A stretch of DNA of 64,000 nucleotides from Pseudomonadota bacterium (GCA_018240695.1 JAFEFH010000004.1:1032-65031), one strand, 5' to 3'. Shown: positions 1 to 20,507, counted from the stretch's first letter. The notes: generated from the letters alone by a model not told the origin. A program made the numbers and translations.

Positions 1-124
1 CGCCGCCCGAGACCAGCAGCACATCGAACCCGCCGCGCGACAGCGCGCGGGCAAGCGTCGCGGCGCGGCGCAGATGGCCGATGCCCAACAGGTGCTGGAC
101 ATAGAAGAAGACGCGCTGGCTCAT
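1..124 (-). CDS. Glycosyltransferase, GT-B/GT28-like (COG4671-type), 5' fragment running off the window start
   Basis: Manual translation MSQRVFFYVQHLLGIGHLRRAATLARALSRGGFDVLLVSGG; same GxGH motif as the GT at 3170-4450; ATG overlaps the upstream stop (ATGA at 121-124). Confidence 0.85.
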   Translation of the reverse strand, partial: MSQRVFFYVQHLLGIGHLRRAATLARALSRGGFDVLLVSGG

Positions 125-723
125 CTTGGACCGAGCGGCACGTTGACCTCGCCCAGCCGTACGCTGCCGTCGGGACGCGCGTGGAAGAAATGCAGCGCAC
201 GCCAGTCGAGCTTGAGCGGGGGGCGGTCCATCATGTCCCAGCCGGTGGCCATCGCCAGCACGGCGCGGATCGCGGCCTTGTGCGAGACCGCGACGACCGG
301 CTCGCCCGCCGCGGCGATTTCCTTGGCCCAGTCGCCGATGCGGCCCATCACGGCGCGCGGCGACTCGCCGCCCGGCGGCTCGAAATCGAGCCCCTTGTTC
401 TCGGCGTCGATGAAGGCCTGTCCGACCGTCGCGCGCAGCTCGGCGATGGTACGGCCCTCCCACTGGCCGAAGCTCATCTCGCGCAGGCGCTGCTCGATCG
501 CGACGCCGCCCGCCGGCTGCAACAGCTCGGCGGTGCGGCGTGCGCGCTTCAGCGGGCTGCACAGCCGCTTCCAGCCGTCGGCGGGCGCCGGCAGCCGCCA
601 CGTGCGCGCGTCGGCTTCACCCTTGGTGCTGAGGTCGGTATCGGTGAGGCCTTGCAGGCGGCCATCCTCGTTCCACGCGGTCGAGGCATGTCGCAGCAGC
701 GCAAAGGCGACGCCGTCGCTCAT
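121..723 (-). CDS. Histidine phosphatase / phosphoglycerate-mutase family protein
   Basis: LLRHASTAWN (RHG-like), SPLKRARRTA, LREMSFGQWEG, PGGES, AVSHK motifs. Confidence 0.9.
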   Translation of the reverse strand: MSDGVAFALLRHASTAWNEDGRLQGLTDTDLSTKGEADARTWRLPAPADGWKRLCSPLKRARRTAELLQPAGGVAIEQRLREMSFGQWEGRTIAELRATVGQAFIDAENKGLDFEPPGGESPRAVMGRIGDWAKEIAAAGEPVVAVSHKAAIRAVLAMATGWDMMDRPPLKLDWRALHFFHARPDGSVRLGEVNVPLGPR

Positions 724-1838
724 CGGTGGACTCCGGGCAGCGTCTTCAGCGCGGCGCCCAGCGCATGCGCGGCGGCGCGGTCGTCATGGCGCGCGGCGAT
801 GCGGGCGGCGGTGTTGGCCGCGAGCCGCGCGCGCTCGGCCGGATCGTCGAGCAGGCGGGCGACCGCCGCAGCAAACGCCGCCGCATCGCCAATCGGCGTC
901 AGCAGGCCGGCGATACCATCGGCCACCACCGCGGGCACGCCGCCAGTGCGGCCCCCGACCACGGGTACGCCCGCCGCCTGCGCTTCGAGAAAGGCCATGC
1001 CATAGGCTTCGTTGATCGCGGGCCAGACGTAAAGGTCGGCCGACGCATACAGGGACAGCAGCTCGTCCTGGCTGACCGCGCCGGCGAAGCGGATGCGCGC
1101 GCCGAACGGCGCCATCAGCTGCTCGATCTCTGGCCGCGCTGCGCCGTCGCCCACCAGCACCGCGCGCCATTTGCGATCGCCCAGCCGATGAAAGGCGGCG
1201 GCCAGCACGCGATACGACTCGAGCTTGTCGCGCGTGCGCATCATGCCGACGGCCAGCAGCACCGGCACGTCGTTGGCGGCGCGGCGCGCCCGCGTGGCGA
1301 GATAGGGCGCGACGTCGATGAACGGCGGCAGCCAGACCTGGCGCGCCCCGGGCCGCAGGCGCGTGGCGACGCCCGCGACGTCGCGCGGATTGACGGTGAT
1401 CGCGAGGTCGGCGGCGGCGAGCGCGCGCTCGTTGGCGCGATGGCCGAGCCGCGTCTCGCCAACCGCGCGCTGCGCGGCGTGCGAGGCTTCGGCGATCACA
1501 TAGGGTACGCCCAGCGCGCGGCTGACGGCCGGGCCCAGCCAGTCGGGCTTGCGATAGTAGGAATGGTAGGTGAACCACAGATCGAAGCGCTCGGGATGGC
1601 GCGCCGGCAGCGCGCGCCAGCGTTCGACGATGCGTCCGGCCTGGCGGCGCGCGCGGCGTTCGAGATCGAGATGGGCGGCGGGATCGGGCACGCCCTGCGC
1701 CACGCGGGTATGGGCCGGCATCAGGACCGTGTGGCCGAGGCGCTTCAGCAGGCGCGCCAGGCCGCGCGCCATCTCGCGGTCGCCCGAGGGCACCGGATGA
1801 TCGGGCGGCTTCAGCGGCGTGTGCAGCAGCACGCGCAT
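720..1838 (-). CDS. Glycosyltransferase family 4
   Basis: Start reassigned to MRVLLHTPLKPPDHPVPSGDR (ATG 1838); ADLYVWPAINEAYGMAFLEAQAAGVPVV GT4 signature. Confidence 0.9.
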   Translation of the reverse strand: MRVLLHTPLKPPDHPVPSGDREMARGLARLLKRLGHTVLMPAHTRVAQGVPDPAAHLDLERRARRQAGRIVERWRALPARHPERFDLWFTYHSYYRKPDWLGPAVSRALGVPYVIAEASHAAQRAVGETRLGHRANERALAAADLAITVNPRDVAGVATRLRPGARQVWLPPFIDVAPYLATRARRAANDVPVLLAVGMMRTRDKLESYRVLAAAFHRLGDRKWRAVLVGDGAARPEIEQLMAPFGARIRFAGAVSQDELLSLYASADLYVWPAINEAYGMAFLEAQAAGVPVVGGRTGGVPAVVADGIAGLLTPIGDAAAFAAAVARLLDDPAERARLAANTAARIAARHDDRAAAHALGAALKTLPGVHR

Positions 1839-1855
1839 GGCGACGAGCCCCCCAA

Positions 1856-3148
1856 TTACTCGGCGGCGCGGGCCTCGGGTTGCTCGATCTGGGCGGCGAG
1901 GCTGGCGCCGCGCGGCTGCATCAGCGCGCGGCCGATGAAGTCGACGCCGGCCTCGTAGGAAAAGCGCGTGCGCACGATCTCGTTGGAGCGCTTGCCGAAG
2001 CGCGCGCGCAGGTCGGGATCGCGCGCCAGTTTCTCGAGCGCCGCGGCGAGCTGGTCGGGCGAGGCGGGATCGCACATCAGGCCGTTCTCGCCGTCCTTCA
2101 CGAACTCGCCGATCGCGGCCGAGCGCGTCGAGACGATCGCCATCTGCTGGTAGCCCGCCTCCTGCAACACGTTGGGCATGCCCTCGCGGTCGCCGTCGCT
2201 CGCGGTCTTGCTGGCCAGCACGAAGATGTCGGCGCGCTGGTAGGCCTCGAACACGGTCTTCTGCGGCAGCGCGCCGTGCCAGGTGCAGCGGTCGGCGATG
2301 CCGGCCTGCTCGGCCAGGTGCACGACCGAATCGCCCAGCACGCCGGCGCCGATATGCTCGAAGCGCCAGTTGAGGTCCTTCGGCAGCTTCGCAAGGGCGG
2401 CGATCAGGTCGTCATAGCCCTTCTTCGCCACGCGGCGGCCGACCGACAGGATCACCACCGGATCGTTGGGGTTCGAGCCGTCGCGGCGCGAGCGCGTCGC
2501 CGGCGGCGCCGGCAGGTTGGCGAGATCGAGGCCGTGATAGACCAGCCGCAGCCGGTCGCGGTCGCTCACCAGCTCGTCGAGGCGCGCGCGCGCGTACTGC
2601 GTGCAGGTCACGATCCAGTCGATGTCGGCGAGCTTGGTCTTCAGCTCCCATTCCTGGCTGGTCCAGATGTCCTTGGCGTGCGCCGAGGCGCTCCACGGCA
2701 GGCCGCGCATGATCGCGGCGTAGCGCGTCGCCGAAGCCGGCGTATGGATGAAGTGCGCGTACATCCGCTCGATGCCGGCCGGCATCTCGGCGGCGAGCAC
2801 GAGGCCCTGGCCGAAGCGCCTGATCCGGTTGGGCGTGCGGTCGCGCACGACGTCGTGCAGGAAGCGCGCGCGCGCGGCCTTGTAGCCCGGCAGCTTGCGC
2901 GCCTTCCACCAGGCACGGATCACGCGCATCGGATCGTTCTTGAGATACTCCGGCAGGTAGACGATCGGCGCCTTGACGCGCGCGTGCACCGGATGGATCG
3001 CGGGATCGGTCGGCAGGCGCAGCGAATAGATCACCAGCTTCAGGCCCCGCGCCTCGAGGCCCGCCATCTCCTGCGCGATGAAGGTTTCTGACAGTCGCGG
3101 CCAGCACTTGACCACGACCGCGATGCGCGCGTCATTCGACTCAACCAT
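1856..3148 (-). CDS. Glycosyltransferase family 4 (WcaL-like)
   Basis: WPRLSETFIAQEM, AHFIHTP, SVGRRVAKKG, DREGMPNVLQEA motifs. Confidence 0.9.
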   Translation of the reverse strand: MVESNDARIAVVVKCWPRLSETFIAQEMAGLEARGLKLVIYSLRLPTDPAIHPVHARVKAPIVYLPEYLKNDPMRVIRAWWKARKLPGYKAARARFLHDVVRDRTPNRIRRFGQGLVLAAEMPAGIERMYAHFIHTPASATRYAAIMRGLPWSASAHAKDIWTSQEWELKTKLADIDWIVTCTQYARARLDELVSDRDRLRLVYHGLDLANLPAPPATRSRRDGSNPNDPVVILSVGRRVAKKGYDDLIAALAKLPKDLNWRFEHIGAGVLGDSVVHLAEQAGIADRCTWHGALPQKTVFEAYQRADIFVLASKTASDGDREGMPNVLQEAGYQQMAIVSTRSAAIGEFVKDGENGLMCDPASPDQLAAALEKLARDPDLRARFGKRSNEIVRTRFSYEAGVDFIGRALMQPRGASLAAQIEQPEARAAE

Positions 3149-3169
3149 GAAACACCGATGTCTGCAGAA

Positions 3170-4450
3170 TCAGAAACTGGCCCGTGTCGCCGCGGGCTCG
3201 AGGGGAACGGCCGCGGGCGCTTCGGCCGGCGCGGGAGGATCGATCGAGGCGGGGCCGCGATTGGGATGCGCGAGACCGCGCGCGACGAGCTTGATGACGT
3301 TGGGCAGGCCGTCGAGCAGGCCGGGCACGATGACGTCGCTCGGCGCGCGCTGCTGCGGCAGCTGGCGCAGCGCGGTGGCCATGACGTGCGGATCGCGGCC
3401 CTTGTCGGCGTCGAGCATCTCCATCAGCCCGAGGTTGCGCGCGGCGCGCGCCCGGATGAGCTGCTCCATGCGCGGCCGCGTGCGCGGGATGATCAGCGCC
3501 TTCTTGTCGAACGACAGGATCTCGCAGAACGTGTTGTAGCCGCCCATCGCCACGACGCCGGCTGCGCGCTGCATCAGCGCGCCGAGATTGTTGGTGAAGG
3601 TGAGCGTGCGGATGTGCGGGAACTTCGCGGCGCGCTCCTTGAAGCTCTCGCGCGCGGCCGCCGACATGAACGGGCCGAACGCGATCACCGCGCCGTAGGG
3701 AATGTTGGGATCGCTCTCGTAAGCCGACAGCACCCAGTCGACCAGCGCGTCGCCGTCGCCGCCGCCGCCCGGCGTCACCAGGATGAACGGCCGGTCGAGC
3801 TCGTCGCCCTCGTGCGGCACGTCGGTGTGCAGCGGAAGCTCGCGGCGCAGGTAGCCGGTGTAGACGGTCTTGTGGCGGACCGACGGCGGCACGTCGATGC
3901 CCTGCAGCGGCTTGTTGATCTGCGGCAGGCCGTAGATCCAGATCTGGTCGTAGAGGTCGGCGAGCGCTGGCACGACGTTCTTGCGCTCCCACTCGACGGC
4001 GAGCTGGCCGGGATCGTCCATGACATCGCGCAGGCCCATGATCAGCGGCGTGCCGCGGTCCTTCAGCATCCGCAAGGTCGGCTCGACCTCGCCACGCAGG
4101 CCGAGCGGCTCCTTGTCGACGATGAACAGGTCGGGCCGGTAGATGTCGGCGGTGTCCTTGATGATGCGGGTGCGCATCTCCAGCGTGTGCTCGACGCCGA
4201 CCCGCAGGTTGGCGGAGTCGTACTCGCCGGTGTCGATCTGCTTGACCACGCCCGGGATGCGCACGAAGTCGATGCCGGAGCGGAATTCGTAGGAGCCGAT
4301 CACCGCCGAGCCCGAGACGATCAGGACCGAGATCGAGCTGTCGGCGCCGACGACCGCGTTGGCGATGGTCCGGCAGCGGCTGACATGGCCGAGGCCGTAG
4401 GAATCGTGGCTGTAGAGCAGCACACGCTTTGGCCGGCTGTTTGCAGGCAT
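3170..4450 (-). CDS. Glycosyltransferase, GT-B/GT28 C-terminal-like (COG4671-type)
   Basis: True start MPANSRPKRVLLYSHDSYGLGHVSR (ATG 4450) inside the long ORF 3170-6316; ILVTPGGGGDG and VAMGGYNTFCEI motifs. Confidence 0.88.
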   Translation of the reverse strand: MPANSRPKRVLLYSHDSYGLGHVSRCRTIANAVVGADSSISVLIVSGSAVIGSYEFRSGIDFVRIPGVVKQIDTGEYDSANLRVGVEHTLEMRTRIIKDTADIYRPDLFIVDKEPLGLRGEVEPTLRMLKDRGTPLIMGLRDVMDDPGQLAVEWERKNVVPALADLYDQIWIYGLPQINKPLQGIDVPPSVRHKTVYTGYLRRELPLHTDVPHEGDELDRPFILVTPGGGGDGDALVDWVLSAYESDPNIPYGAVIAFGPFMSAAARESFKERAAKFPHIRTLTFTNNLGALMQRAAGVVAMGGYNTFCEILSFDKKALIIPRTRPRMEQLIRARAARNLGLMEMLDADKGRDPHVMATALRQLPQQRAPSDVIVPGLLDGLPNVIKLVARGLAHPNRGPASIDPPAPAEAPAAVPLEPAATRASF

Positions 4451-4612
4451 CGAAAAGCCTCTCCCCCTGGCCGCGGCAGTGCCCCGGCCAGTTCTTGGCC
4501 GGACTATGCCATAAGCCGCCAGCGGCGCGAACCCCCGCTCCTGGCGTAAAATATCTAATGTAATCAATGGCATGATCGAATATAGGTAAGGTCGGTCGCG
4601 ACCCGGGTTTCG

Positions 4613-7324
4613 ATGCAGCGCAATCTTTTCACCTACATTTGGCGCCACAGCCGGCACGAGCAGCTCGTGATCCTGCTGCTCGTGGTGTTCGCGCAGGTCT
4701 TCTATTTCCTGTCGCTGAGCGTGCCGAAGTCGATCGTGAACAACGGCATCTCGGGCAATGCCTTCAAGGACAGCCCGACCGTCACCATGCTGTCGATGAC
4801 GATCCCGCTGCCCGGCTTTCTGGGCGGCAGCATCCGGCTGTTCGACGGCTTCTCGGCCGACCAGATGACCTATCTGGTGATCATGAGCTTCGTCTACCTG
4901 GGCGCGGTGATCGTGAACGCCCAGTTCAAGCGCAACATCAACACCCAGAAGGGCCGGATGGGCGAGCGCATGCTGCGCCGCCTGCGCTACGAGCTCTACG
5001 ACCGCATCCTGCGCTTCCCGGCCGCCCATTTCCGCAAGGTCAAGCAGGCCGAACTCGCGACCATGATCAAGGACGAGGTCGAGCCGCTCGGCGGCTTCAT
5101 CGGCGACGCCTACGTCCAGCCGATGTTCCTCGGCGGCCAGGCGCTGACGGCCGTCGCCTTCATCTTCATGCAGAACTGGCTGCTCAGCCTGGTGGTGATC
5201 GCGCTGCTGGCGGTGCAGATGATCATCGTGCCGCGGCTGCGCAAGCCGGTGCTGGTGCTCGGCCGCCAGCGCCAGCTCTCGGCGCGCCTGCTGGCCGGCC
5301 GCATCGCCGAGACCGCCGACGGCGTGAACGAGATCCACATCCACGGCTCGTCGAATTACGAGCGCGCCGACATCTCCGAGCGGCTGGGCCACATCTTCCG
5401 GATCCGCTTCGACCTCTACAACAAGAAGTTCGTCGCCAAGTTCTGGAACAACATCCTGTCGCAGGCGACGCCGTTCGCGATCTATCTGCTGGGCGGCTAC
5501 TTCGCGATCACCGGCAAGATGGACGTCGGCGCCGTGGTCGGCGTGCTGCTGGCCTACAAGGACCTGCCCTCGCCGATCAAGGAGCTGATCGACTGGGACC
5601 AGCAGCGCCAGGACGTGCAGATCAAGTACGAGCAGGTGATCGACCAGTTCCAGCCCGAGGGCATGATGCCCGAGGAGCTGCAGGCGATTCCCGAGGGCCC
5701 GCCGCCGCCGCTCGGCCACGAGATGGTGCTGTCGGGCATCACCGTGACCGAGGACGGCCGCGTGAAGCAGCTCGACGGCGTGTCGCTGGTCATCCCCACG
5801 GACAAGAAGATCGCCGTCATCGGCGCGTCGAGCTCGGGCAAGGACGTGCTGGGCCAGGTGATGGCGCGCATCGTCTATCCGTCGAGCGGGTCGGTGAAGA
5901 TCGACGGCAAGGACCTGCTGCAGATCCCCGAATTCCTGCTCGGTTCGCGCATGGCCTATATCGGCCAGGAGACCTACCTCTTCCCGCAAAGCGTGCGTGA
6001 CAACCTGCTGTTCGGCCTCAAGCACCGGCCGACGACGCCGGCCACCTACGAGGGCGAGCTTCAGACCGCGCGCGAGCTGTTCTGGCGCGAGGCCGAGCGC
6101 TCGGGCAACCCGGTGCTCGATCCCAACGCCGACTGGATCGACTACGAGCTGGCCGGCGCCACCGGCCCGGCCGACCTGCTGCCGTGCATGGTGCACGCGC
6201 TGAAGCAGGTCGAGCTCGACGACGACATCTATTCGCTCGGCCTGCGCGGCGCGATCGACGCGGGCAAGCGGCCCGACCTCGCCGACAAGATCCTGAAGGC
6301 GCGCCACGCGCTGCACGGCCGCTTGCAGGCGCCCGAGAACGCCGGGCTGATCGAGCCGTTCAACGCCGACAAGTACAACAAGAACCTGTCGGTGGCGGAG
6401 AACCTGCTGTTCGGCACCGCGCTCGGCGCGGCGTTCGACGGCGACAACCTCGCGGCCGATCCCTACATGCAGACGGTGCTGGCCCGCACCGGCCTCGACC
6501 AGGACCTGCTGCGCATGGGTCTGTCGATCGCCGAGACGATGGTCGAACTGTTCTCCGGCCTGTCACCCGACAACCCGCTGTTCGAGCAGTACAGCTTCAT
6601 CTCCGCCGACGAGCTGCCCAACGTCCGCCTGCTGTTGCAGCGCCTGGGCGGCAAGGGCGTCGAGGCGGTCCCGCCGGCCGACCGCGCGCGCCTGATGACC
6701 CTGCCGCTGCGCTACATCGAGGCGCGGCATCGCCTGGGCCTGATCGACGGCGCGATGGAGGACCGGCTGCTGGCCGCCCGCCGGGCGTTCGCCGAGAACC
6801 TGCCGCCGGCGCTGCGCGGCAATGTCGAATTCTACGACTTCGCCAAGTACAACAGCGCCGCCACCCTGCTGGACAACATCCTGTTCGGCCGCGTCGTCTA
6901 CGGCCAGGCGCAGGCCGAGAGCCGCATCCGCAAGCTGCTGACGGAGGTGATGGCCGAGCTGCACCTGCGCGATTCCGTGATCGAGGTCGGGCTGGAGTAC
7001 AATGTCGGCGTCGCGGGACGGCGCCTGCCGGCCACCCAGCGCCAGAAGCTCGGCATCGCGCGCGCGCTGATCAAGCGGCCGCAGTTCCTGGTGGTCAACG
7101 AGGCCGTTGCCGTGTTCGACGGGCGCACCCAGGATCGCATGCGCGACAACATCCTGGCCGCCGCCGACGGGCGCGGCGTGATGTGGATCGCCAACCGGCC
7201 GAGCCAGGCTTTGTCGTTCGACGAGGTCGTGGTCATGCAGGCGGGCAAGATCGTGGCGCACGGCGCGCCGCAGGAACTCGAGGCCAAGGGCGGGCTCTAT
7301 GCCGAGCTCATGGCGTCGACGTAG
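4613..7324 (+). CDS. ABC exporter (TMD + NBD fusion) with degenerate, insertion-split ATPase domain
   Basis: Multi-TM ABC membrane domain; Walker A-like GASSSGKD, Q-loop YIGQE, signature-like LPATQRQK, Walker B-like FLVVNE. Confidence 0.88.
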   Translation: MQRNLFTYIWRHSRHEQLVILLLVVFAQVFYFLSLSVPKSIVNNGISGNAFKDSPTVTMLSMTIPLPGFLGGSIRLFDGFSADQMTYLVIMSFVYLGAVIVNAQFKRNINTQKGRMGERMLRRLRYELYDRILRFPAAHFRKVKQAELATMIKDEVEPLGGFIGDAYVQPMFLGGQALTAVAFIFMQNWLLSLVVIALLAVQMIIVPRLRKPVLVLGRQRQLSARLLAGRIAETADGVNEIHIHGSSNYERADISERLGHIFRIRFDLYNKKFVAKFWNNILSQATPFAIYLLGGYFAITGKMDVGAVVGVLLAYKDLPSPIKELIDWDQQRQDVQIKYEQVIDQFQPEGMMPEELQAIPEGPPPPLGHEMVLSGITVTEDGRVKQLDGVSLVIPTDKKIAVIGASSSGKDVLGQVMARIVYPSSGSVKIDGKDLLQIPEFLLGSRMAYIGQETYLFPQSVRDNLLFGLKHRPTTPATYEGELQTARELFWREAERSGNPVLDPNADWIDYELAGATGPADLLPCMVHALKQVELDDDIYSLGLRGAIDAGKRPDLADKILKARHALHGRLQAPENAGLIEPFNADKYNKNLSVAENLLFGTALGAAFDGDNLAADPYMQTVLARTGLDQDLLRMGLSIAETMVELFSGLSPDNPLFEQYSFISADELPNVRLLLQRLGGKGVEAVPPADRARLMTLPLRYIEARHRLGLIDGAMEDRLLAARRAFAENLPPALRGNVEFYDFAKYNSAATLLDNILFGRVVYGQAQAESRIRKLLTEVMAELHLRDSVIEVGLEYNVGVAGRRLPATQRQKLGIARALIKRPQFLVVNEAVAVFDGRTQDRMRDNILAAADGRGVMWIANRPSQALSFDEVVVMQAGKIVAHGAPQELEAKGGLYAELMAST

Positions 7325-7345
7325 GATGGCAAACAGGAGGACACG

Positions 7346-7801
7346 ATGAACCTCAACGAGGAAGTCGAGATTCTCAAGGGCGTACCGCTCTTCGCCAAGA
7401 TGGAGGCGGCGAAGCTCAAGCTGCTGGCGTTCACCGGCGAGCGCATGACGTTCAGCACCGACCAGGAAGTCTGCCACCAGGGCGACCCCGGGGATGCCAT
7501 GTACGTCATCCTGGGCGGCGTGGCCGACGTGCTGATCGACACCCCGACCGGCCCGCTGCGCGTGGCCCAGCTGAAGAAGAACGGCTTCTTCGGCGAGACC
7601 GCCATCCTCTGCGACGCGCCGCGCAATGCCACGATCCGCGCCAGCGAATCGCTTCTGACGCTGCGCATCACCAAGGACATGTTCTATCGCCTGGTCACCG
7701 AGTTCCCGACCATGGCGATCGAGATGATGCGCGAGCTCGCGCACCGCGTCGAGGACACCAACCGCAAGCTGCGCGACGCCACGGCCAACAAGGCGGCCTG
7801 A
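7346..7801 (+). CDS. Stand-alone cyclic nucleotide-binding domain protein
   Basis: HQGDPGDAMYVILGG and FFGETAILCDAPRNAT phosphate-binding cassette; RBS GGAGG; no HTH. Confidence 0.9.
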   Translation: MNLNEEVEILKGVPLFAKMEAAKLKLLAFTGERMTFSTDQEVCHQGDPGDAMYVILGGVADVLIDTPTGPLRVAQLKKNGFFGETAILCDAPRNATIRASESLLTLRITKDMFYRLVTEFPTMAIEMMRELAHRVEDTNRKLRDATANKAA

Positions 7802-7809
7802 TCGTCCGC

Positions 7810-8298
7810 ATGAGCCGTCTCGATAGTTTCATCGCGCGCATGCAGGCGCAGCGCGACTGCCTGAATTTCCTCAAGCCCCGGATCGACGCGATCGCCGGGC
7901 CGATCCTCGAGGTCGGGCTGGGCAACGGCCGCACTTACGACCATCTGCGCGATCTCTTTCCCGCGCGCGACGTCTACGTGTTCGAGCGCAAGGTCGCGGC
8001 CCATCCCGACTGCATCCCGCCCGACGACCGGCTGTTCCTGGGCGACGCCGACAAGACCATCCCGCAGGCCGCGGCGAGGCTCGGCGCCACGGCGGCGCTG
8101 ATCCACACCGATCTCGGCACCGGCGATCACGCGGCCAATGTCGAGATGGGCAAGTGGCTGGGGCCGGCGCTCGACACGCTGGCCGCCACCGGCGGCTATG
8201 TGCTGGCCAACCAGGCGCTCAACGTGAAGCGCTGGCAGTTGCTGCCCGAGCCGCCGGGCGTCCCGAAGGACCGCTACTTCCTCTACCGCGTGACCTGA
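7810..8298 (+). CDS. Small class I SAM-dependent methyltransferase-like protein
   Basis: MSRLDSFIARMQAQR; ILEVGLGNGRTYDHLR glycine-rich motif I; embedded in ORF 6184-8298. Confidence 0.82.
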   Translation: MSRLDSFIARMQAQRDCLNFLKPRIDAIAGPILEVGLGNGRTYDHLRDLFPARDVYVFERKVAAHPDCIPPDDRLFLGDADKTIPQAAARLGATAALIHTDLGTGDHAANVEMGKWLGPALDTLAATGGYVLANQALNVKRWQLLPEPPGVPKDRYFLYRVT

Positions 8299-8316
8299 TC
8301 GGCCCGTGGGGGCCGT

Positions 8317-8559
8317 CTAGTGGCCGAACAGGCGGACCAGCGCCAGCAGCACGATCGCGCCCACCACCGAGCCGATGAAGCCCGCCGGACGGCCCGCGCG
8401 ATAGAGACCGAGCGCCTGGCCGCCGTACGTCGCGATCACCGAACCGACGATGCCGATCAGCACCGTGATCCAGAAGCCGTAGATGTGCGGGCCGGGCCCG
8501 ATCCAGCGCGCGACCAGGCCCACCAGGAAGCCGATCAGGATGATGCCGATGATCTGCAT
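8317..8559 (-). CDS. GlsB/YeaQ/YmgE (transglycosylase-associated) small membrane protein
   Basis: IIGIILIGFLVGLVARWI, GIVGSVIA, GFIGSVVGAIVLL pattern; RBS GGGGAGAG. Confidence 0.88.
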   Translation of the reverse strand: MQIIGIILIGFLVGLVARWIGPGPHIYGFWITVLIGIVGSVIATYGGQALGLYRAGRPAGFIGSVVGAIVLLALVRLFGH

Positions 8560-8572
8560 GTGCTCTCCCCCT

Positions 8573-9394
8573 TCAGACGTCGAGTGTCGCCAGCACCGGC
8601 ACGTGATCGGACGGCACGTTCCAATCCCGCAGGTCGGTGTCGATGCGATAGCTGCGCAACGCCCCGCCGAGCGCCGGCGTCGCCAGGATGTGGTCGAGGC
8701 GGCGGCCGCGGTTGGACACGCGCCAGTCGTTGTTGCGGTAGCTCCACCATGAATAGAGCTTCTCGGTCTCGGGAACGAAGCGGCGCGGCACGTCGATCCA
8801 GTCGAGCGACGCCATCATGCCGCCGAACAGCTCGACCTCGACGGGGGTGTGCGACACGATCTTGAGGAGCTGCTTGTGGCTCCAGACGTCGTGCTCGAGC
8901 GGCGCCACGTTGAGGTCGCCGACGGCGATGCGGCGCAGACCCTTCTTCGCCCGCGGCTTGGGCTTGCGGTCGGCGTACCACCGGGCCATCTCGCGATAGA
9001 AGTCGAGCTTATGCGCGAACTTCAGGTTGGCCTCCGGATCGGGGATGTCGCCGCCGGCCGGGATGTAGAGATTGTCGAGCAGGATCGGATCGCCGCCGAT
9101 GTCGAGCGCGGCCTCGATGTGGCGGCAGTCCTCCTTGCCGCAGCGATGGTGAACGTTCATCGCGGTGAACGGCACCTTGGAGAGGATGGCGACGCCGTTA
9201 TAGGCCTTCATGCCCTGGATCAGCCGGTGCGTGTATCCCAGGGCCTCGAACGGCTGGTGCGGGAAGAATTCGTCGGGACACTTGGTCTCCTGGAGACACA
9301 GCACGTCGGGCTTGCGCAACTTCAGAAAGCGTTCGACGTTGGCGATCCGCAGACGGACGGAATTGATGTTCCAGGTGGCGACGGTCAGACTCAT
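8573..9394 (-). CDS. xth: Exodeoxyribonuclease III (AP endonuclease)
   Basis: ATWNINSVR, DVLCLQETK, YNGVAILS, GDLNVAP, YSWWSYR, RRLDHIL, SDHVPV; ATG 9394. Confidence 0.95.
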   Translation of the reverse strand: MSLTVATWNINSVRLRIANVERFLKLRKPDVLCLQETKCPDEFFPHQPFEALGYTHRLIQGMKAYNGVAILSKVPFTAMNVHHRCGKEDCRHIEAALDIGGDPILLDNLYIPAGGDIPDPEANLKFAHKLDFYREMARWYADRKPKPRAKKGLRRIAVGDLNVAPLEHDVWSHKQLLKIVSHTPVEVELFGGMMASLDWIDVPRRFVPETEKLYSWWSYRNNDWRVSNRGRRLDHILATPALGGALRSYRIDTDLRDWNVPSDHVPVLATLDV

Positions 9395-15928: not shown

Positions 15929-16761
15929 GGACGCTGATCGCCCTCGCGGCGCTGCTGGCGGCGGCCGCGACGACCGCCTTCGCCCAGACGGCCAAGCCCG
16001 CGCCGCGTGCGCCGGTGCCGGTGACCAAGCCCACCGGGCCGAAGTCGCCGTTCGCACCGCCCGCCTTCAAGGTCTCGATCGCCACGGAAGCGGCCTATCC
16101 GCCGTTCAACTACCTCGACCGCAAGGGGCTGCCCGCCGGCTTCGAGATGGATATCGCCCAGGAAGCCTGCATGCGCATGAAGGCCGAGTGCGAGTTCGTC
16201 GTGGCCAAGTGGGACGACCTGATCCCCGGTCTGCTCGACAAGAAGTTCGACATCGTCATGTCGTCGCTCGACGTAACGCCGGAACGACGCCGCCGGCTCG
16301 GCATGTCGCGGCGGTATTATCTGTCGCCCGGCGCCTTCATCGCCAAGAAGGGCGCGCCCTATGACGGGCCGCCCTCGCTGCTGCGCAACAAGAAGATCGG
16401 CATCCAGAAGGATTCCATGCACGCCGACTGGGCCGACAAGAGCTTCCGCCGCTCCGCGCAGCTCAAGCGCTACCCGTCGGTGAAGGACGAGCTAACGGCT
16501 TTGGCCAACGACGAGGTCGACGCCGTGTTCGGCGACAAGGTCGAGCTGTGGCTGTGGTCGCAGAAGCCCGAGGGCAAGTGCTGCGAGCTGATCGGCCAGG
16601 ACATCAAGGACACGCAGACGCTCGGCATCGGCGTCTCCGCCGGCCTGCGGCGGGAGGACATCAAGCTGCGCGAGGCCTTCAACAAGGCGATCGGCGAGAT
16701 GATGAGCGACGGGACCTACAAGAAGCTGAACGAGAAATACTTCCCGTTCGCGCTTAACTGA
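15925..16761 (+). CDS. Amino-acid ABC transporter substrate-binding protein (family 3)
   Basis: Signal peptide MRTLIALAALLAAAATTAFA; ATEAAYPPFN, GFEMDIA, WDDLIPGL, DGTYKKLNEKYF. Confidence 0.88.
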   Translation: MRTLIALAALLAAAATTAFAQTAKPAPRAPVPVTKPTGPKSPFAPPAFKVSIATEAAYPPFNYLDRKGLPAGFEMDIAQEACMRMKAECEFVVAKWDDLIPGLLDKKFDIVMSSLDVTPERRRRLGMSRRYYLSPGAFIAKKGAPYDGPPSLLRNKKIGIQKDSMHADWADKSFRRSAQLKRYPSVKDELTALANDEVDAVFGDKVELWLWSQKPEGKCCELIGQDIKDTQTLGIGVSAGLRREDIKLREAFNKAIGEMMSDGTYKKLNEKYFPFALN

Positions 16762-16766
16762 GAGTT

Positions 16767-16865
16767 CTTCCCCATTCATATGGGGAAGTGCCCGCGTCTT
16801 ACGCGGGCGATGGGGTCATGACCCCTCCGGGCCCTGCGGGCCACCTCCCCATTTGAATGGGGAGG
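16767..16865. repeat. 99-bp multi-hairpin palindromic intergenic element (RIME/CIR/MITE-like)
   Basis: Outer arms cttccccattcatatggggaag and cctccccatttgaatggggagg are near-inverted copies and each self-complementary; inner hairpins gcccgcg-tctta-cgcgggc and ggggtcatgacccc. Confidence 0.7.
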
Positions 16866-16880
16866 CTTCGAGATGATGAA

Positions 16881-17252
16881 CTAGTTGAGCGCGCGATCGC
16901 GGCTGACGTACTGGCCGCGCTTCAGTTCCTTGAAGAAGTGCGGCACCTGCGGATGGCCGACCGGCTTGCCGGTCTCGTCGGGCAGCAGGTTCTGCTCGGA
17001 GACGTAGGCGACGTAGGTCGTCTGCGCGTTCTCGGCGAGCAGGTGGTAGAACGGCTGGTCGCGGCGTGGGCGCACTTCCTCGGGGATCGACGCCAGCCAC
17101 TCCTCGGTGTTCGCGAACACCGGATCGACGTCGAAGATCACGCCCCGGAAGGGATACAGGCGGTGTTTCACCACCTGACCGATGGAGAACTTGGCCGTGC
17201 GCATCGGCAGCTCGGCGATCGCGGGACCCGCAGTCTGGTTGGCGATGTTCAT
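16881..17252 (-). CDS. hspQ: Heat shock protein HspQ (YccV-like)
   Basis: AKFSIGQVVKHRLYPFRGVIFDVDP, RDQPFYHLLAEN, YVAYVSEQNL. Confidence 0.93.
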   Translation of the reverse strand: MNIANQTAGPAIAELPMRTAKFSIGQVVKHRLYPFRGVIFDVDPVFANTEEWLASIPEEVRPRRDQPFYHLLAENAQTTYVAYVSEQNLLPDETGKPVGHPQVPHFFKELKRGQYVSRDRALN

Positions 17253-17476
17253 GGCGAAAGTATTACTCCGAACGGGGGTTCAGGCAACGCGCCAGGCGGG
17301 GGGTCAAATCCTCCCCCACTCTGCAGCAATACGCCGGAAATGCCCGGCCGGATTGCTCGGCGGCCACTTCGAGAGAACAGAGCCGGAATCACCCTCTCGG
17401 CCCCATCGGTTGACGCGCGGCCCGGCCTGTGGACTCTGTGCCGCGGGCACTTTGGGAAACAGCTTTGGCCGACGGT

Positions 17477-18313
17477 TTGAAAGTCCGCTTCTGGGGCGTG
17501 CGAGGCTCCATCTCCTGCGCGGGCCCGGAATATGTTCGTTACGGCGGCAATACGTCGTGTCTCGAAGTGACCGCGGGCGGCCGCCGGCTGATCTTCGACG
17601 CCGGCAGCGGCATCCGCACCCTGGGCCTCGACCTGGTCCGGCAGGCGCCGCTCGACCTCGACATCTATTTCACGCACACGCATCTCGACCACCTGTCGGG
17701 CCTGACGTTCTTCGCCCCGCTGTTCGACGCGCGCAATTCGGTGCGGCTGTGGGCCGGCCACCTCGAGGCGCCGCACACGCTGAAGTCGGTCGTGAACAAC
17801 CTGATGCAGGCGCCGATCTATCCGGTGACGCTCGACATCTTCCGTGCCAGCGTCGGCTTCAAGGAATTCAGGTGCGGCGACACGCTCGACTGCGGTCCCA
17901 TCACCTTGCGCACCGCGCCGCTCAACCATCCCAACGGCGCGACCGGCTACCGCATCGAGCATGGCGGCAAGTCGATCTGCTACATCACCGACACCGAGCA
18001 CCGCGACGGCGAACGCGACAAGACGATCGTCGAGCTGTGCCGCGGCGCCGACGTGATGATCTACGATTCGAGCTATACCGACGAGGAATACGAGCGCTAT
18101 CGCGGCTGGGGCCATTCGACCTGGCAGGAAGGCGTGCGGGTCGCCGACGCCGCCGGAGTCGGCACGCTCGCGATCTTCCACCACGATCCCAGCCACGACG
18201 ACGCCTTCATGGACGACGTCGCGCGCAAGGCGGCGGTGCTGCGCCCGGGCTCGGTGCCCGGCGGGCTGCCGCGTGTGATCGTGGCCCATGAAGGCCTGAC
18301 GCTCGTTCCCTGA
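17477..18313 (+). CDS. MBL-fold metallo-hydrolase (putative cyclic-nucleotide phosphodiesterase-like)
   Basis: Likely TTG start (alternative GTG 17429); KVRFWGVRGS, GGNTSC, FTHTHLDH (HxHxDH), LNHPNG, YITDTEH, WGHSTW, FHHDP. Confidence 0.88.
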   Translation: MKVRFWGVRGSISCAGPEYVRYGGNTSCLEVTAGGRRLIFDAGSGIRTLGLDLVRQAPLDLDIYFTHTHLDHLSGLTFFAPLFDARNSVRLWAGHLEAPHTLKSVVNNLMQAPIYPVTLDIFRASVGFKEFRCGDTLDCGPITLRTAPLNHPNGATGYRIEHGGKSICYITDTEHRDGERDKTIVELCRGADVMIYDSSYTDEEYERYRGWGHSTWQEGVRVADAAGVGTLAIFHHDPSHDDAFMDDVARKAAVLRPGSVPGGLPRVIVAHEGLTLVP

Positions 18314-18315
18314 TC

Positions 18316-19152
18316 ATGAGTCGTTCCCTGTCTTTGCGCGGCCGTTGGCGGCGCCTGATGCTTGGCCTGCCGACGGTGCTGGGCCTCACGCCCGGCGGCT
18401 GGTTCATCCCGCACCGCTATGCGCCGCTGCTCGCGCCTCCCGGCGCGCAGCCGCCCTATGCCGCGATCGAGGTGCTGTTCGAGGAGAAGAGCGCGGCGTT
18501 CGGCGCCATGCTCGACCTGCTCGATGGGCGCGCCGCCGAGTTCGAGGCCATGCGCGGCCTGTTCGACCAGGCCTGGTTCCCCTCGCTCGACGCCGCCATG
18601 GCCTACACGCTGGTGCGCGAGCGCAAGCCGCTGCGCATCGTCGAGATCGGCTCCGGCCATTCCACTCGCGTGCTGGCCAAGGCCTCGGCCGGCGTCGCCG
18701 AGATCCTGGCGATCGACCCCGCGCCCCGCGCCGACATCGCGGGCCTGCCGGGCGTCACCATCGTGCCGTCGACCCTCCAGGCCGCCCCGACCGACCTGTT
18801 CGATCGCCTGCAAGGCGGCGACCTGCTGTTCATCGATTCCAGCCATATCCTGATGCCGGGCAGCGACGTCGACTATCTGCTGAACCGCGTGCTGCCGCGC
18901 CTGCCGGCGCGCACGCTGGTCCACATCCACGACATCTACCTGCCGTTCGACTATCCCGCGATGTGGGGCTGGCGGAACTACAACGAGCAGCAGGGCGTGC
19001 TGCCGCTGCTGACCACCGGCGCCTACACGCCGCTGTTCTCGAGCGTGTGGGCGGAGCGGCGCCTCGGCGACCGCCTCGCGCGGTCGGTCGTGCCCCGCCT
19101 GCCGCGCCCGGCCGACGCGCTGGCCGCCAGTCTCTGGCTCGAGAAGCGCTGA
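18316..19152 (+). CDS. Class I SAM-dependent methyltransferase (Methyltransf_24-like)
   Basis: RIVEIGSGHST, LFIDSSH, HIHDIYLPFDYP, YNEQ motifs. Confidence 0.82.
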   Translation: MSRSLSLRGRWRRLMLGLPTVLGLTPGGWFIPHRYAPLLAPPGAQPPYAAIEVLFEEKSAAFGAMLDLLDGRAAEFEAMRGLFDQAWFPSLDAAMAYTLVRERKPLRIVEIGSGHSTRVLAKASAGVAEILAIDPAPRADIAGLPGVTIVPSTLQAAPTDLFDRLQGGDLLFIDSSHILMPGSDVDYLLNRVLPRLPARTLVHIHDIYLPFDYPAMWGWRNYNEQQGVLPLLTTGAYTPLFSSVWAERRLGDRLARSVVPRLPRPADALAASLWLEKR

Positions 19153-20507
19153 TGTTCGCGGCGCTCCGCGGCTGGTTGTTCGACAGCGGCGGCGCCGACA
19201 AGCTTCCCGAGCGCGTGCGCGAGGCGATCCGCCTCCAGCAGGAGCGCAGCGAGATCCTGATCGCCTGGATCCAGCTCGCCATCGTGGCGCTGGTCACCAC
19301 GGTCTACGAGACCAGCGCCATGCCCGAGGGCGTGGTGCAGTACGACTTCGCGTTCGAGACGCAGGTCTTCGCCACCTACGGCGTGTTCTGCGTGATCCGC
19401 CTGTTCCTCGCGTGGCGGCGCCTGCTGCGGCCGTGGATGCTCTATGTGTCCGTCGTGGCCGACATGGCGCTGCTGATGGGGTTGATCTTCTCGTTTCCGC
19501 TGAAATACGCCCAGCCGGCGGCTTTCTATCTGAAGGTGCCGACCCTTCTCTATGTCTTCCTGTTCATCGCGCTGCGGGCGCTGCGCTTCGAGGCGCGCTT
19601 CGTCGTCTTCACCGGCCTCGTCGCCGTCGCCGGCTGGATCGGCCTGGTGCTCTACGTCGAAAGCGGCAAGGGCGGCCCGCTCGACGTCCGCACCGACGAC
19701 TTCGTCGAGTACATGACCTCGAACTCCCTGCTGATCCACGCCGAGGTCGACAAGATCATCGCCATCCTGCTCACCACCGCGGTACTGGCCATCGCCATCG
19801 CGCGGGCGCGGCATCTGCTGGTTCGCGCGGTGAGCGAAGGGGCGGCGGCGCGCGACCTCTCGCGCTTCTTCGATCCCGACGTCGCCGACCGCATCCGTTC
19901 GGCGCATGTCTCGGTGAAGGCCGGCGAAGGCGAGCTGCGCGACGCCACGATCCTGACCGTCGACCTGCGCGGCTTCACGCGCCTCTCGGTCGAGCTGGCG
20001 CCGGCCGACGTGATGAAGCTGTTGCAGGACTATCAGGGCAGGGTCTGCCCCTTGATCGTCGCGAACGGCGGCAACATCGACAAGTTCCTGGGCGACGGCA
20101 TCCTGGCCTCCTTCGGCGCGGTCACTCCCTCATCGACCGCCGCCGCCGATGCGATGCGCGCAGCCGATGCCATCCTCGCCGCCACGGCGGTGTGGGCGGC
20201 GGAACGGCAAGCCGCCGGCCTCGCCCCGCTCGCGGTAGGCCTGGCGTTGACGGCCGGCCGGGTCGTGTTCGGCGCGGTGGGCGACGGCGAGCGGCTTGAA
20301 TTCACCGTGATCGGCGACGCCGTGAACCTCGCGGCCAAGCTCGAGAAGCACAACAAGGAAGAGAAGACGCAGGGCCTGACCGATGCCGCGACCTATGCCC
20401 TCGCCGAGCGCCAGGGCTATCGGGCCCCTCGGCCGCACGAGCACCGCGCGGGACGCGTCGTCGGCGGCGTGCCGGATTTGGTCGATATTGTGGTTTTAGG
20501 GACCTGA
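19152..20507 (+). CDS. Membrane-anchored class III adenylate/guanylate cyclase
   Basis: TGATG coupling; several TM helices; TVDLRGFT, DKFLGDG, FTVIGDAVNLAAKLE. Confidence 0.9.
   Translation: MFAALRGWLFDSGGADKLPERVREAIRLQQERSEILIAWIQLAIVALVTTVYETSAMPEGVVQYDFAFETQVFATYGVFCVIRLFLAWRRLLRPWMLYVSVVADMALLMGLIFSFPLKYAQPAAFYLKVPTLLYVFLFIALRALRFEARFVVFTGLVAVAGWIGLVLYVESGKGGPLDVRTDDFVEYMTSNSLLIHAEVDKIIAILLTTAVLAIAIARARHLLVRAVSEGAAARDLSRFFDPDVADRIRSAHVSVKAGEGELRDATILTVDLRGFTRLSVELAPADVMKLLQDYQGRVCPLIVANGGNIDKFLGDGILASFGAVTPSSTAAADAMRAADAILAATAVWAAERQAAGLAPLAVGLALTAGRVVFGAVGDGERLEFTVIGDAVNLAAKLEKHNKEEKTQGLTDAATYALAERQGYRAPRPHEHRAGRVVGGVPDLVDIVVLGT

Follow-up and report, generated by a model that had tools for sequence, protein, structure and literature searches.

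A gene cluster of glycosyltransferases, an importer and a degenerate exporter-fold protein, orthologous to the Sinorhizobium meliloti PPP locus

The closest described relative of the gene cluster considered here is the phazolicin-protecting polysaccharide (PPP) cluster of Sinorhizobium meliloti, smb21252-smb21271, which was named by Travin et al. in 2023 (PMC10128002). Phazolicin is a ribosome-targeting peptide antibiotic that enters cells via BacA and YejABEF, and the PPP product is, according to these authors, an as-yet-uncharacterised surface polysaccharide (PMC10128002). We analysed a stretch of 64,000 nucleotides from a Pseudomonadota bacterium (GCA_018240695.1 JAFEFH010000004.1:1032-65031; this whole stretch is called the window), whose first 8,298 nucleotides carry eight genes, gA to gH, in two divergent operons. 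These genes make up the larger part of one conserved unit of ~20 kb that is orthologous to the S. meliloti PPP locus.

A first-pass annotation, made from the sequence alone, had stated that no described pathway with this gene set was known, which is not quite right given that the orthologous S. meliloti locus already bears a name (PMC10128002). What was already known, then, is a genetically flagged and biochemically uncharacterised cluster to which our locus is orthologous. What appears to be new is the definition of the cluster core, the link to an importer, a duplicated insertion in the nucleotide-binding domain (NBD) of the exporter-fold protein that is accompanied by a family-wide loss of motifs, and an obligate sensor for cyclic mononucleotides (cNMP).

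One cluster across several orders

Coding frames were fixed with a plot of G+C content by codon position (GC3), because at ~68% G+C raw lists of open reading frames (ORFs) are full of shadows, and gene families were assigned by Pfam and NCBIfam scans. The leftward, minus-strand operon starts with gA (3170-4450; 426 aa), a glycosyltransferase (GT) of the GT28/COG4671 type with GT-B architecture, and continues with gB (1856-3148; 430 aa), a GT4 enzyme resembling WcaL and EpsE, gC (720-1838; 372 aa), another GT4 enzyme, and gD (121-723; 200 aa), a histidine phosphatase of branch 1 (His_Phos_1, 7.2e-40). It ends within the window in gE (1-124), a second GT28/COG4671-like GT that runs off the left edge. 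Across a divergent intergenic control region of 162 bp (4451-4612), the plus-strand operon encodes gF (4613-7324; 903 aa), with an ABC_membrane and a split ABC_tran domain, gG (7346-7801; 151 aa), a lone cNMP_binding domain (1.5e-16), and gH (7810-8298; 162 aa), a Methyltransf_17 protein (7.4e-58). ATGA overlaps join gC to gD (720-723) and gD to gE (121-124), and the remaining junctions are spaced by 8-21 nt. The first-pass annotation had described the minus-strand operon as two GT28-like and two GT4 enzymes plus a phosphatase, tightly packed with ATGA overlaps; that description stands, except that gE is present as a stub of 41 codons and that the operon runs past position 1.

The closest proteins are those of Reyranella and Enhydrobacter (Reyranellales, Alphaproteobacteria), at 78-93% identity, and the layout in Enhydrobacter aerosaccus and in two metagenomic contigs is the same as in the window. 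In relatives, the leftward operon extends past gE, with 4-bp overlaps, into a deacetylase-like gene (here the 253-aa gene), a gene for a small membrane protein of 168 aa and an importer.

We scanned one genome per species with a six-sequence alignment of the gF insertion described below and obtained 80 loci; a 20-sequence alignment was too diverse. Each locus was scored by tblastn with eleven cluster proteins, and the counts use loci with at least 8 kb of upstream sequence. In close loci, all of them from Reyranellales, every gene is present in 24/24. In the 21 distant loci, defined by a gF identity below 55% and representing Dongiaceae, Inquilinus, Rhodospirillaceae, Kordiimonadales, Minwuia and Betaproteobacteria, gG is found in 21, the importer ATPase in 18, the 253-aa and 168-aa genes in 17, gA and gE in 16, gB, gC and gD in 15, and gH in 13. 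The arrangement is kept across orders at protein identities of 41-63%, with gene order shuffled and membership retained, and it is far beyond chance. The first-pass annotation had supposed that the two operons belong together, and this search bears it out: they co-occur in every close locus and in about 15-18 of the 21 distant ones, and in other lineages they are fused into one co-directional operon.

Co-directional versions are found in Rhizobium, Sinorhizobium, Azospirillum and Betaproteobacteria. On pRL11 of R. johnstonii 3841, the order is cyclase, importer, gA, gB, a gE-like gene, gF and gG, all on one strand, and S. meliloti pSymB has all of these and, in addition, a polysaccharide lyase and two methyltransferases of other families. 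Azospirillum oryzae, whose gF insertion is just 26% identical, has a Methyltransf_17 gene, gF with a fused cNMP domain, the importer, and then gA, gB, gC, gD and gE. In Ruegeria TM1040, gF is likewise fused, the importer lies 6.7 kb away and GT genes are not found within 12 kb. These comparisons define a core composed of the importer, gA, gB, gE, gF and gG. The accessories are gC, gD, the deacetylase-like gene, the small membrane protein, the methyltransferases, a class III cyclase, the lyase and a sugar dehydrogenase.

Orthologues in S. meliloti 1021 were located by tblastn and by mapping coordinates to Data set S1. The genes gA and gB correspond to SMb21264 (redA, COG4671; 47% identity) and SMb21265 (redB, GT4; 54%), which align over more than 90% of their length and are adjacent and in the same order (L086/L088). 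The orthologue of gE is SMb21266 (COG4671; 43%), that of gF is SMb21269 (annotated 'ABC exporter'; 44%), and orthologues of gG (SMb21270; 50%) and of the importer ATPase (58%) lie in the same locus, as does the FkbM methyltransferase SMb21271. The counterparts of gC and of the 253-aa gene, SMb21252 and SMb21253 (41% each), are located ~7 kb upstream of the cyclase gene of the cluster. The msbA2 operon (SMb21188-91) was rejected as the S. meliloti orthologue, being located at 938 kb and not at 841 kb.

Published genetics is in line with a single system. In transposon sequencing (Tn-seq) with phazolicin, log2 fold changes of -3.8 to -5.4 were reported for the orthologues of gA, gB, gC, gE, the deacetylase-like gene and gF, as well as for a methyltransferase (PMC10128002), so that GT, exporter and methyltransferase mutants share one phenotype, as expected if the glyco-operon and the exporter act together, which the first-pass annotation had assumed. 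Independently made mutants of smb21252 and smb21265 (the gC and gB orthologues) have an 8-fold lower minimal inhibitory concentration, insertions in the genes for the lyase (SMb21259) and the sugar dehydrogenase (SMb21256) have a similar effect, and the chromosomal adenylate cyclase gene cyaA is also depleted (PMC10128002). The class I methyltransferase of S. meliloti has no entry in the available part of the affected-gene table (PMC10128002). Orthologues of PPP genes in Agrobacterium were found in a screen for pyocyanin sensitivity, and hits in a Medicago Tn-seq are noted as well (PMC10128002). In R. leguminosarum, the gF orthologue pRL110047 is classed as 'nodule-general' by insertion sequencing (INSeq), meaning that it is required in nodules, and mutants that have lost the importer genes pRL110053-54 gain an advantage in the rhizosphere.

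Several peculiarities of the neighbourhoods deserve mention. In S. meliloti 1021 (L088, pSymB 825000-848000), the gF orthologue and the cyclase are each recovered as two tblastn pieces (~16724-19433 and 3468-4813 of that locus, respectively). The 1021 sequence differs here from strains 2011 and R28 by a 1-nt indel; the annotation of SMb21269 begins at an internal start, and SMb21257 bears the label 'truncated'. The transposon phenotype of SMb21269 is strong despite the indel, which would be explained if the sequence contained an error or if the shortened product were functional. A gene of the mechanosensitive ion channel family lies between two GT4 genes on S. meliloti pSymB (L091, 2608-4728), directly upstream of the PPP orthologues of gC and of the deacetylase-like gene. 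Two close loci carry an insertion directly after gH (L002, 13821-16145; L003, 13629-15953) that is absent from the window and from the close locus L001. It encodes a 655-aa protein with weak matches to VRR-NUC and NERD nucleases as well as a DUF6572 protein, and looks like a small mobile or defence islet.

An alignment of 37 Reyranellales intergenic regions reveals two conserved AT-rich motifs in the control region, ACTATGCCATAAG and AAAATATCTAATGTAATCAATGGCATGATCGAATATAGG, at 4503-4515 and 4548-4586, each with an ATGnCAT palindrome. They are probably operator or promoter elements for some regulator. A CRP/Clr-type box (TGTGA-N6-TCACA) is not evident in this region, the conserved motifs being different from it, and the paper on the cAMP-dependent Clr regulon does not list the PPP/gF locus. 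A sigma-70 consensus scan gave no promoter match in the intergenic region, consensus promoter and terminator scans of 4300-8700 yielded nothing useful, and an exact-sequence look-up with gD returned no record.

The exporter-fold protein and its cyclic nucleotide partner

The first-pass annotation had placed an ABC exporter, a cNMP-binding protein and a methyltransferase in the plus-strand operon. The three genes are confirmed, but gF is not a canonical ABC exporter, and 'ABC export' in the usual sense is doubtful given the degenerate state of its ATPase motifs. The exporter-type fold itself, with a six-helix membrane domain ahead of the NBD, is well supported (ABC_membrane, 3.4e-17; an MsbA model covers aa 78-470). 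The protein is composed of a transmembrane domain (TMD; aa 1-350), an N-terminal part of the NBD (371-476), an insertion (477-792, nt 6041-6988) and a C-terminal part of the NBD (793-903). Accordingly split, the ABC_tran match ends at profile position 85 of 137, and ~315 residues stand between the region that follows the Q-loop (aa ~476) and the signature (aa ~793).

None of the canonical features, namely Walker A GxxGxGK[ST], a Walker B Asp with Glu, LSGGQ and the H-loop His, is intact in gF. An alignment with ABCB4 places GASSSGKD at Walker A, LPATQ in place of LSGGQ, VVNE at Walker B and an Asn at the H-loop His. Walker A therefore keeps its Lys with Asp replacing Ser/Thr, and the Walker B Asp has become Asn.

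This degeneration is a property of the family. A search with the insertion only over 1.84 billion representatives returned 990 clusters at E<=1e-3, of which 282 reach E<=1e-30, and full-length members have 820-1200 aa. Among 71 full-length representatives, 28 keep the Walker A Lys, 20 the Walker B Asp and 19 the catalytic Glu. The Q-loop Gln and the H-loop His are each retained by 5, and LSGGQ is absent from all signature variants listed. Both the Rhizobium clade (GPNSSGAE / FNR) and the beta-like clade (GNTGGGGS / LDQ) are without the Walker A Lys. Conservation of at least 90% is found at 26 positions, of which 15 lie in the insertion, 7 in the TMD and 4 in the NBD core, and no catalytic residue is among them; the TMD has long invariant stretches within clades. 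Because clades that occupy the same gene cluster lack the Walker A Lys, the catalytic Glu and the H-loop His, these alignments argue strongly that the function shared by gF proteins is not based on ATP hydrolysis.

Profile-profile comparison of sub-alignments indicates that the insertion is an internal duplication of the helical-subdomain unit that follows the Q-loop, with the pattern '...YN.NAS.AENLLFG...GL..DL...G...'. Repeats 2 and 3 match with a probability of 94% (E 1.6e-7), and the tails of repeats 1 and 2 match with E 8.7e-5. In a moderate AlphaFold model of gF, built from a 36-sequence alignment of three clades (overall pLDDT 67.7), the NBD core is predicted with confidence and the insertion consists of helices throughout. 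Foldseek with the whole model returned standard type IV ABC exporters only, with low TM-scores, and did not illuminate the insertion.

The second part of this module is gG, whose gene immediately follows gF in all loci that offer enough sequence. A cNMP domain is fused to the C-terminus of gF in 15/70 full-length representatives and in 9/9 long homologues tested, and the gF proteins of Azospirillum and Ruegeria carry this fusion as well. Such fusions are gene-fusion evidence for a physical partnership between the two proteins. Along with the adjacency and the class III cyclases that co-localise with the cluster, they support the link between the cNMP protein and export that the first-pass annotation had suggested, and gG is an obligate partner of gF. 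In two exporter homologues (P0262 and P0269), the fused cNMP domain is in turn followed by GGDEF, which hints at cross-talk with cyclic di-GMP (c-di-GMP) signalling in some lineages.

The cassette FGETAILCDAPRNATIRA of gG (window 7586-7642) aligns with the phosphate-binding cassettes of PKG and PKA, in keeping with membership in the CAP family. Within the pattern G[ED]...PR[TNS]AT, no variant listed from 88 orthologues departs from the Gly-Glu/Asp pair or the Arg (R93 in gG). Most orthologues read PRTAT, with a PKG/CNG-like Thr after the Arg, and PRNAT occurs in the small clade to which the window belongs; this exchange may shift nucleotide preference. The cassette sequence does not decide between cAMP and cGMP.

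Orthologous class III cyclases lie inside the cluster in Rhizobium, Sinorhizobium, several Betaproteobacteria and Minwuia. In the window, an ORF on the plus strand ~10 kb downstream (18345-20507) carries a C-terminal class III adenylate/guanylate cyclase domain (Pfam, 5.9e-9). This protein could be a source of the cNMP signal; it is 28% identical to the cluster-linked rhizobial cyclase, and its orthology is doubtful.

Glycosyltransferases, accessory enzymes and the importer

The GTs of the cluster fall into two groups. The first comprises gA (Glyco_tran_28_C, 4.9e-7; MJ1255 family, 2.8e-11) and gE, whose translated stub MSQRVFFYVQHLLGIGHLRR matches the full-length 377-aa orthologue of L001 (Glyco_tran_28_C, 2.7e-12). 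The two are paralogues with 24% identity. The AlphaFold2 (AF2) model of gA is poor (pLDDT 54), and its fold matches are to generic GT-B proteins only, specifically GT1 natural-product GTs and MurG; weak MGT-family matches are seen for gE and for its orthologue in Rhizobium. A literature search on COG4671 gave no result. The second group contains gB, with a Glycos_transf_1 match (Pfam, 2.6e-33) and an NCBIfam EpsE match that spans the full length at a score below the cut-off, and gC (Pfam Glyco_trans_1_4, 6.9e-30). The closest solved relatives of gC are MshA (1.6e-19), the sucrose-phosphate synthase (SPS) Tll1590 (1.4e-18) and BshA (5e-16), so that gC resembles enzymes that act on small, often phosphorylated, acceptors.

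The first-pass annotation had suggested that a GT and the phosphatase form a pair that makes and then dephosphorylates a sugar phosphate. The kinship of gC with MshA, SPS and BshA and its translational coupling to gD through ATGA would fit such a glycoside-phosphate synthase/phosphatase step. The phosphatase gene is coupled on both sides, accompanies gC in alphaproteobacterial loci that have the block, and co-occurs with it in most. Neither the Rhizobium nor the Sinorhizobium clusters contain it, though S. meliloti retains the gC orthologue, and the pair is accessory rather than core. The same is true of Methyltransf_17. A solved homologue of gH is available (PDB 3IHT, 1.1e-39), whose own function is not known, and a gene of this family lies directly upstream of the fused exporter gene in Azospirillum. 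A methyltransferase of some family is a near-constant component of the cluster, with S. meliloti swapping Methyltransf_17 for others.

Beyond gE, relatives of the window encode a 253-272-aa protein without a Pfam hit and the 168-aa protein, which has an N-terminal hydrophobic hairpin. The first of these has invariant DDD, HxxxH, PPWNR and HH..D motifs. Its Pfam matches are weak (DUF2334 in 5/15 members, best 0.044; Polysacc_deac_1 in 3/15, 0.013), and a profile search of the Protein Data Bank with this family produced chance matches only. The S. meliloti orthologue is named 'polysaccharide deacetylase family protein' by NCBI. We read this protein as a putative CE4-like de-N-acetylase, a role that is unproven.

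These genes are followed by a GsiA/YejF-like double ATPase and Opp-type permeases. The importer is complete in Betaproteobacteria, where it sits between the GT genes and gF and consists of the ATPase, an SBP_bac_5 binding protein (638 aa) and two permeases. With SBP_bac_5, two BPD_transp_1 permeases and an ATPase carrying oligo_HPY, it belongs to the PepT/Opp type, and its ATPase, unlike gF, has canonical Walker motifs. The binding protein (~635 aa) is closest to the Thermotoga maritima structure 5IPW (1e-80). Its closest characterised relative is SPH1118 of Sphingomonas sp. A1 (phmmer, 2e-69), a cluster C solute-binding protein that binds unsaturated trigalacturonate and pectin, and not peptides; next is an alpha-galactoside-binding protein. 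This kinship, together with the rhizobial lyase and sugar dehydrogenase, suggests that the glycan is acidic and/or contains amino sugars and that its fragments are taken back up.

Readings of the cluster and likeness to known systems

The first-pass annotation had proposed that a methylated oligosaccharide or glycolipid is made and exported, perhaps under the control of cAMP or cGMP, and our results support this in part. We consider it somewhat probable that the cluster builds a glycan with its GTs, that this glycan exits via gF under the governance of a cNMP and is recycled by the importer, and that the whole is a second-messenger-controlled system for a protective envelope glycan. The cytoplasmic GT-B enzymes gA, gB and gE, with gC as an accessory, would assemble a glycan or glycoside, for which gC and gD, where present, would supply a dephosphorylated glycoside building block. 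The CE4-like protein would de-N-acetylate the product, and a methyltransferase, which is gH here, would modify or cap it. The product would then cross the inner membrane through a homodimer of gF, with gating set by cAMP or cGMP bound to gG, and not by ATP turnover. We propose that the probable docking site of gG is the strongly conserved, duplicated helical insertion of the NBD, and that the ATP-driven importer probably serves to recover the product or fragments into which it is broken down in the periplasm. The outcome would be an envelope glycan that serves as a protective barrier and is controlled by a second messenger.

The part of this proposal in which export is ATP-independent and gated by a cNMP is more tentative than the rest. 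On that part depends a wider suggestion, for which our confidence is low: that gF and its ~990 clusters represent an unrecognised class of exporter-fold proteins without ATPase function, in which an NBD remodelled by a triplicated helical subdomain serves a cNMP-gated glycan conduit. Such a class would have its exit gated by a CAP-type sensor, separate or fused, and its fragments retrieved by a dedicated ATP-driven importer, a picture that we likewise regard as possible but doubtful.

A number of observations weigh against this reading as a whole. First, gF of Reyranella keeps the Walker A Lys, the Q-loop Gln and the Glu after Walker B, and in this clade gF may bind ATP and conceivably hydrolyse it slowly. 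Second, the contact between gF and gG is deduced from fusion and adjacency, and the structural models are mediocre (pLDDT 67.7 for gF and 54 for gA). Third, the cNMP and importer genes of S. meliloti are not among the affected genes in the available part of the phazolicin table (PMC10128002). Fourth, three loci (L043-L045) have gF, gG and gH with no GT block within 8.6 kb upstream. Fifth, the product has been isolated from no organism, and 'polysaccharide' is the proposal of the S. meliloti authors. Finally, the cluster contains no priming transferase, polymerase or outer-membrane export component: a priming phosphoglycosyltransferase, a flippase/polymerase, an ABC-2 pair, a GT2 synthase and OPX/PCP proteins were found neither in the window region nor in loci L001, L085, L086 and L089, and such genes could lie elsewhere. 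These three loci belong to Reyranella sp. CPCC 100927, a Vineibacter metagenome-assembled genome (MAG) and another MAG; their gF proteins are ~60% identical, and the importer block is likewise not seen within 8.6 kb upstream.

The best of the rival explanations, though still improbable, is a lipid-linked route, in which the GTs would glycosylate diacylglycerol, a phospholipid or a polyprenol, gF would be a flippase like MsbA or PglK, a terminal methyl cap would mark chains for export as in the WbdD-Wzt systems of E. coli O8/O9a, and the cNMP would only tune the rate. Many glycolipid synthases belong to GT4 and GT28, PimA/PimB and lipid GT models are among the matches of gB and gC, and the TMD of gF is of the MsbA/PglK/ABCB type. 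The S. meliloti methyltransferase mutant shares the phenotype of the GT mutants (PMC10128002), and a neighbouring nucleotide-sugar dehydrogenase of Rhizobium has been linked to O-antigen and nodule fitness. However, no version of the cluster has a phosphoglycosyl or polyprenol-phosphate priming transferase, a ligase or a Wzm/Wzt-type component, and the uphill flipping of a glycolipid normally needs ATP hydrolysis, which is beyond most members of the gF family. This route also leaves the tightly linked oligosaccharide-type importer unexplained.

Less likely again is that gF and gG form a signalling device, a pseudo-ABC membrane receptor for the cNMP, and perhaps for the glycan, that would act allosterically on the GTs or on the neighbouring importer while the glycan leaves by another path. 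The family-wide loss of catalytic motifs, set against a strongly conserved non-catalytic insertion, would suit a receptor, as would the existence of GGDEF-fused variants. Moreover, the importer is the most constant neighbour after gG, and the GT genes of Ruegeria are not close by. The TMD, however, accounts for 7 of the 26 most conserved positions, which is more than an anchor needs, and the S. meliloti gF mutant phenocopies the GT mutants, with importer mutants missing from the available part of the affected list (PMC10128002).

We see little to recommend a scheme of import, modification and export, by which an external oligosaccharide, peptide or antibiotic would be taken up by the PepT-type importer, glycosylated by the GT-B enzymes and released through gF for detoxification or signal editing. 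An importer within an anabolic cluster is unusual, the best fold matches of the gA model are GT1 enzymes that act on natural products and macrolides, weak MGT matches exist for gE and its orthologue in Rhizobium as noted above, and mutants are hypersensitive to phazolicin in S. meliloti and, for the Agrobacterium orthologues, to pyocyanin. Yet the importer genes are not among the phazolicin-sensitising genes in the available record and phazolicin enters by BacA and YejABEF (PMC10128002), the fold matches come from the poor gA model, and a cluster with four GTs, a deacetylase, a lyase and a sugar dehydrogenase looks suited to making a glycan rather than to tagging a drug. That the two operons are unrelated and only accidentally adjacent, for which L043-L045 might be quoted, is effectively refuted by an association that spans several orders and two classes and by the shared Tn-seq phenotype of the S. 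meliloti orthologues.

The cluster has a wide distribution among Alpha- and Betaproteobacteria that live in soil, in freshwater or in association with plants, model rhizobia among them, and an anonymous Reyranella locus is now tied to a genetically tractable system. If the gating proposal were true, cyclic mononucleotides would join the messengers that control the secretion of envelope glycans post-translationally, and this would be the first cAMP- or cGMP-gated glycan export system. It would also provide a bacterial ABC exporter fold that works without ATP turnover.

Of the known systems, the PPP locus is the nearest. In one locus it has orthologues of gA, gB, gC, gE, the deacetylase-like gene, gF, gG and the importer ATPase. 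It is without the histidine phosphatase, the small membrane protein and Methyltransf_17, and has class I S-adenosylmethionine (SAM)-dependent and FkbM methyltransferases instead. Further members are a class III cyclase, a polysaccharide lyase and a nucleotide-sugar dehydrogenase, and the genes are co-directional. The PPP publication mentions neither the degenerate NBD nor the cNMP partner (PMC10128002), and in the literature searched we found no mention of either the degenerate NBD of gF or its cNMP fusion.

Two further likenesses concern the ends of the proposed pathway. The kinship of gC and the coupling to a histidine phosphatase are shared with SPS and its phosphatase SPP, with MshA and its phosphatase, and with glucosyl-3-phosphoglycerate synthase/GpgP. 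The gC/gD pair differs in being embedded in a multi-GT cluster and in having a phosphatase that is dispensable in rhizobia, and the likeness is one of sequence. To SPH1118 and its Opp-like transporter, the binding protein of the importer is a distant homologue, encoded by a gene outside the window.

In E. coli O8/O9a, methyl caps license the export of the glycan, and the methyltransferase of our cluster recalls these caps. The O8/O9a system, with WbdA-D and Wzm/Wzt, also resembles the cluster in its cytoplasmic assembly by GT4 enzymes, in having a methyltransferase within the unit and in an extra domain on the NBD. Wzm/Wzt is, however, an ABC-2 (type V) transporter of separate subunits with canonical motifs and a C-terminal carbohydrate-binding domain, whereas gF is a fused ABCB/MsbA-type protein with an internal helical insertion and degenerate motifs. 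Unlike O8/O9a, our cluster has no undecaprenyl-phosphate priming enzyme and no version free of the cNMP component. The half-size ABCB-type bacterial exporters MsbA, PglK, NdvA/ChvA/Cgt (for cyclic glucan) and PCAT1 share with gF the TMD-NBD order and the ABC_membrane domain and provide its best sequence and fold matches. They are homodimers with two consensus ATP sites. Relatives of gF, by contrast, are without LSGGQ, the H-loop His, the Walker B Asp or catalytic Glu and, in two clades, the Walker A Lys, and they carry the duplicated helical-subdomain insertion of ~315 residues.

Finally, the proposed control has two precedents of different kinds. In the literature searched, no bacterial glycan exporter gated by a cyclic mononucleotide is described. 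The systems controlled by c-di-GMP (the PilZ domain of BcsA, Alg44, PelD and PgaCD) follow the same logic, with a messenger sensor attached to an inner-membrane export component; in our cluster the messenger would be a cyclic mononucleotide and the sensor a member of the CAP family. The use of an exporter fold as a gated passive conduit with a degenerate site is the principle of CFTR, of which gF would be a bacterial counterpart, with the difference that CFTR keeps one active ATP site.

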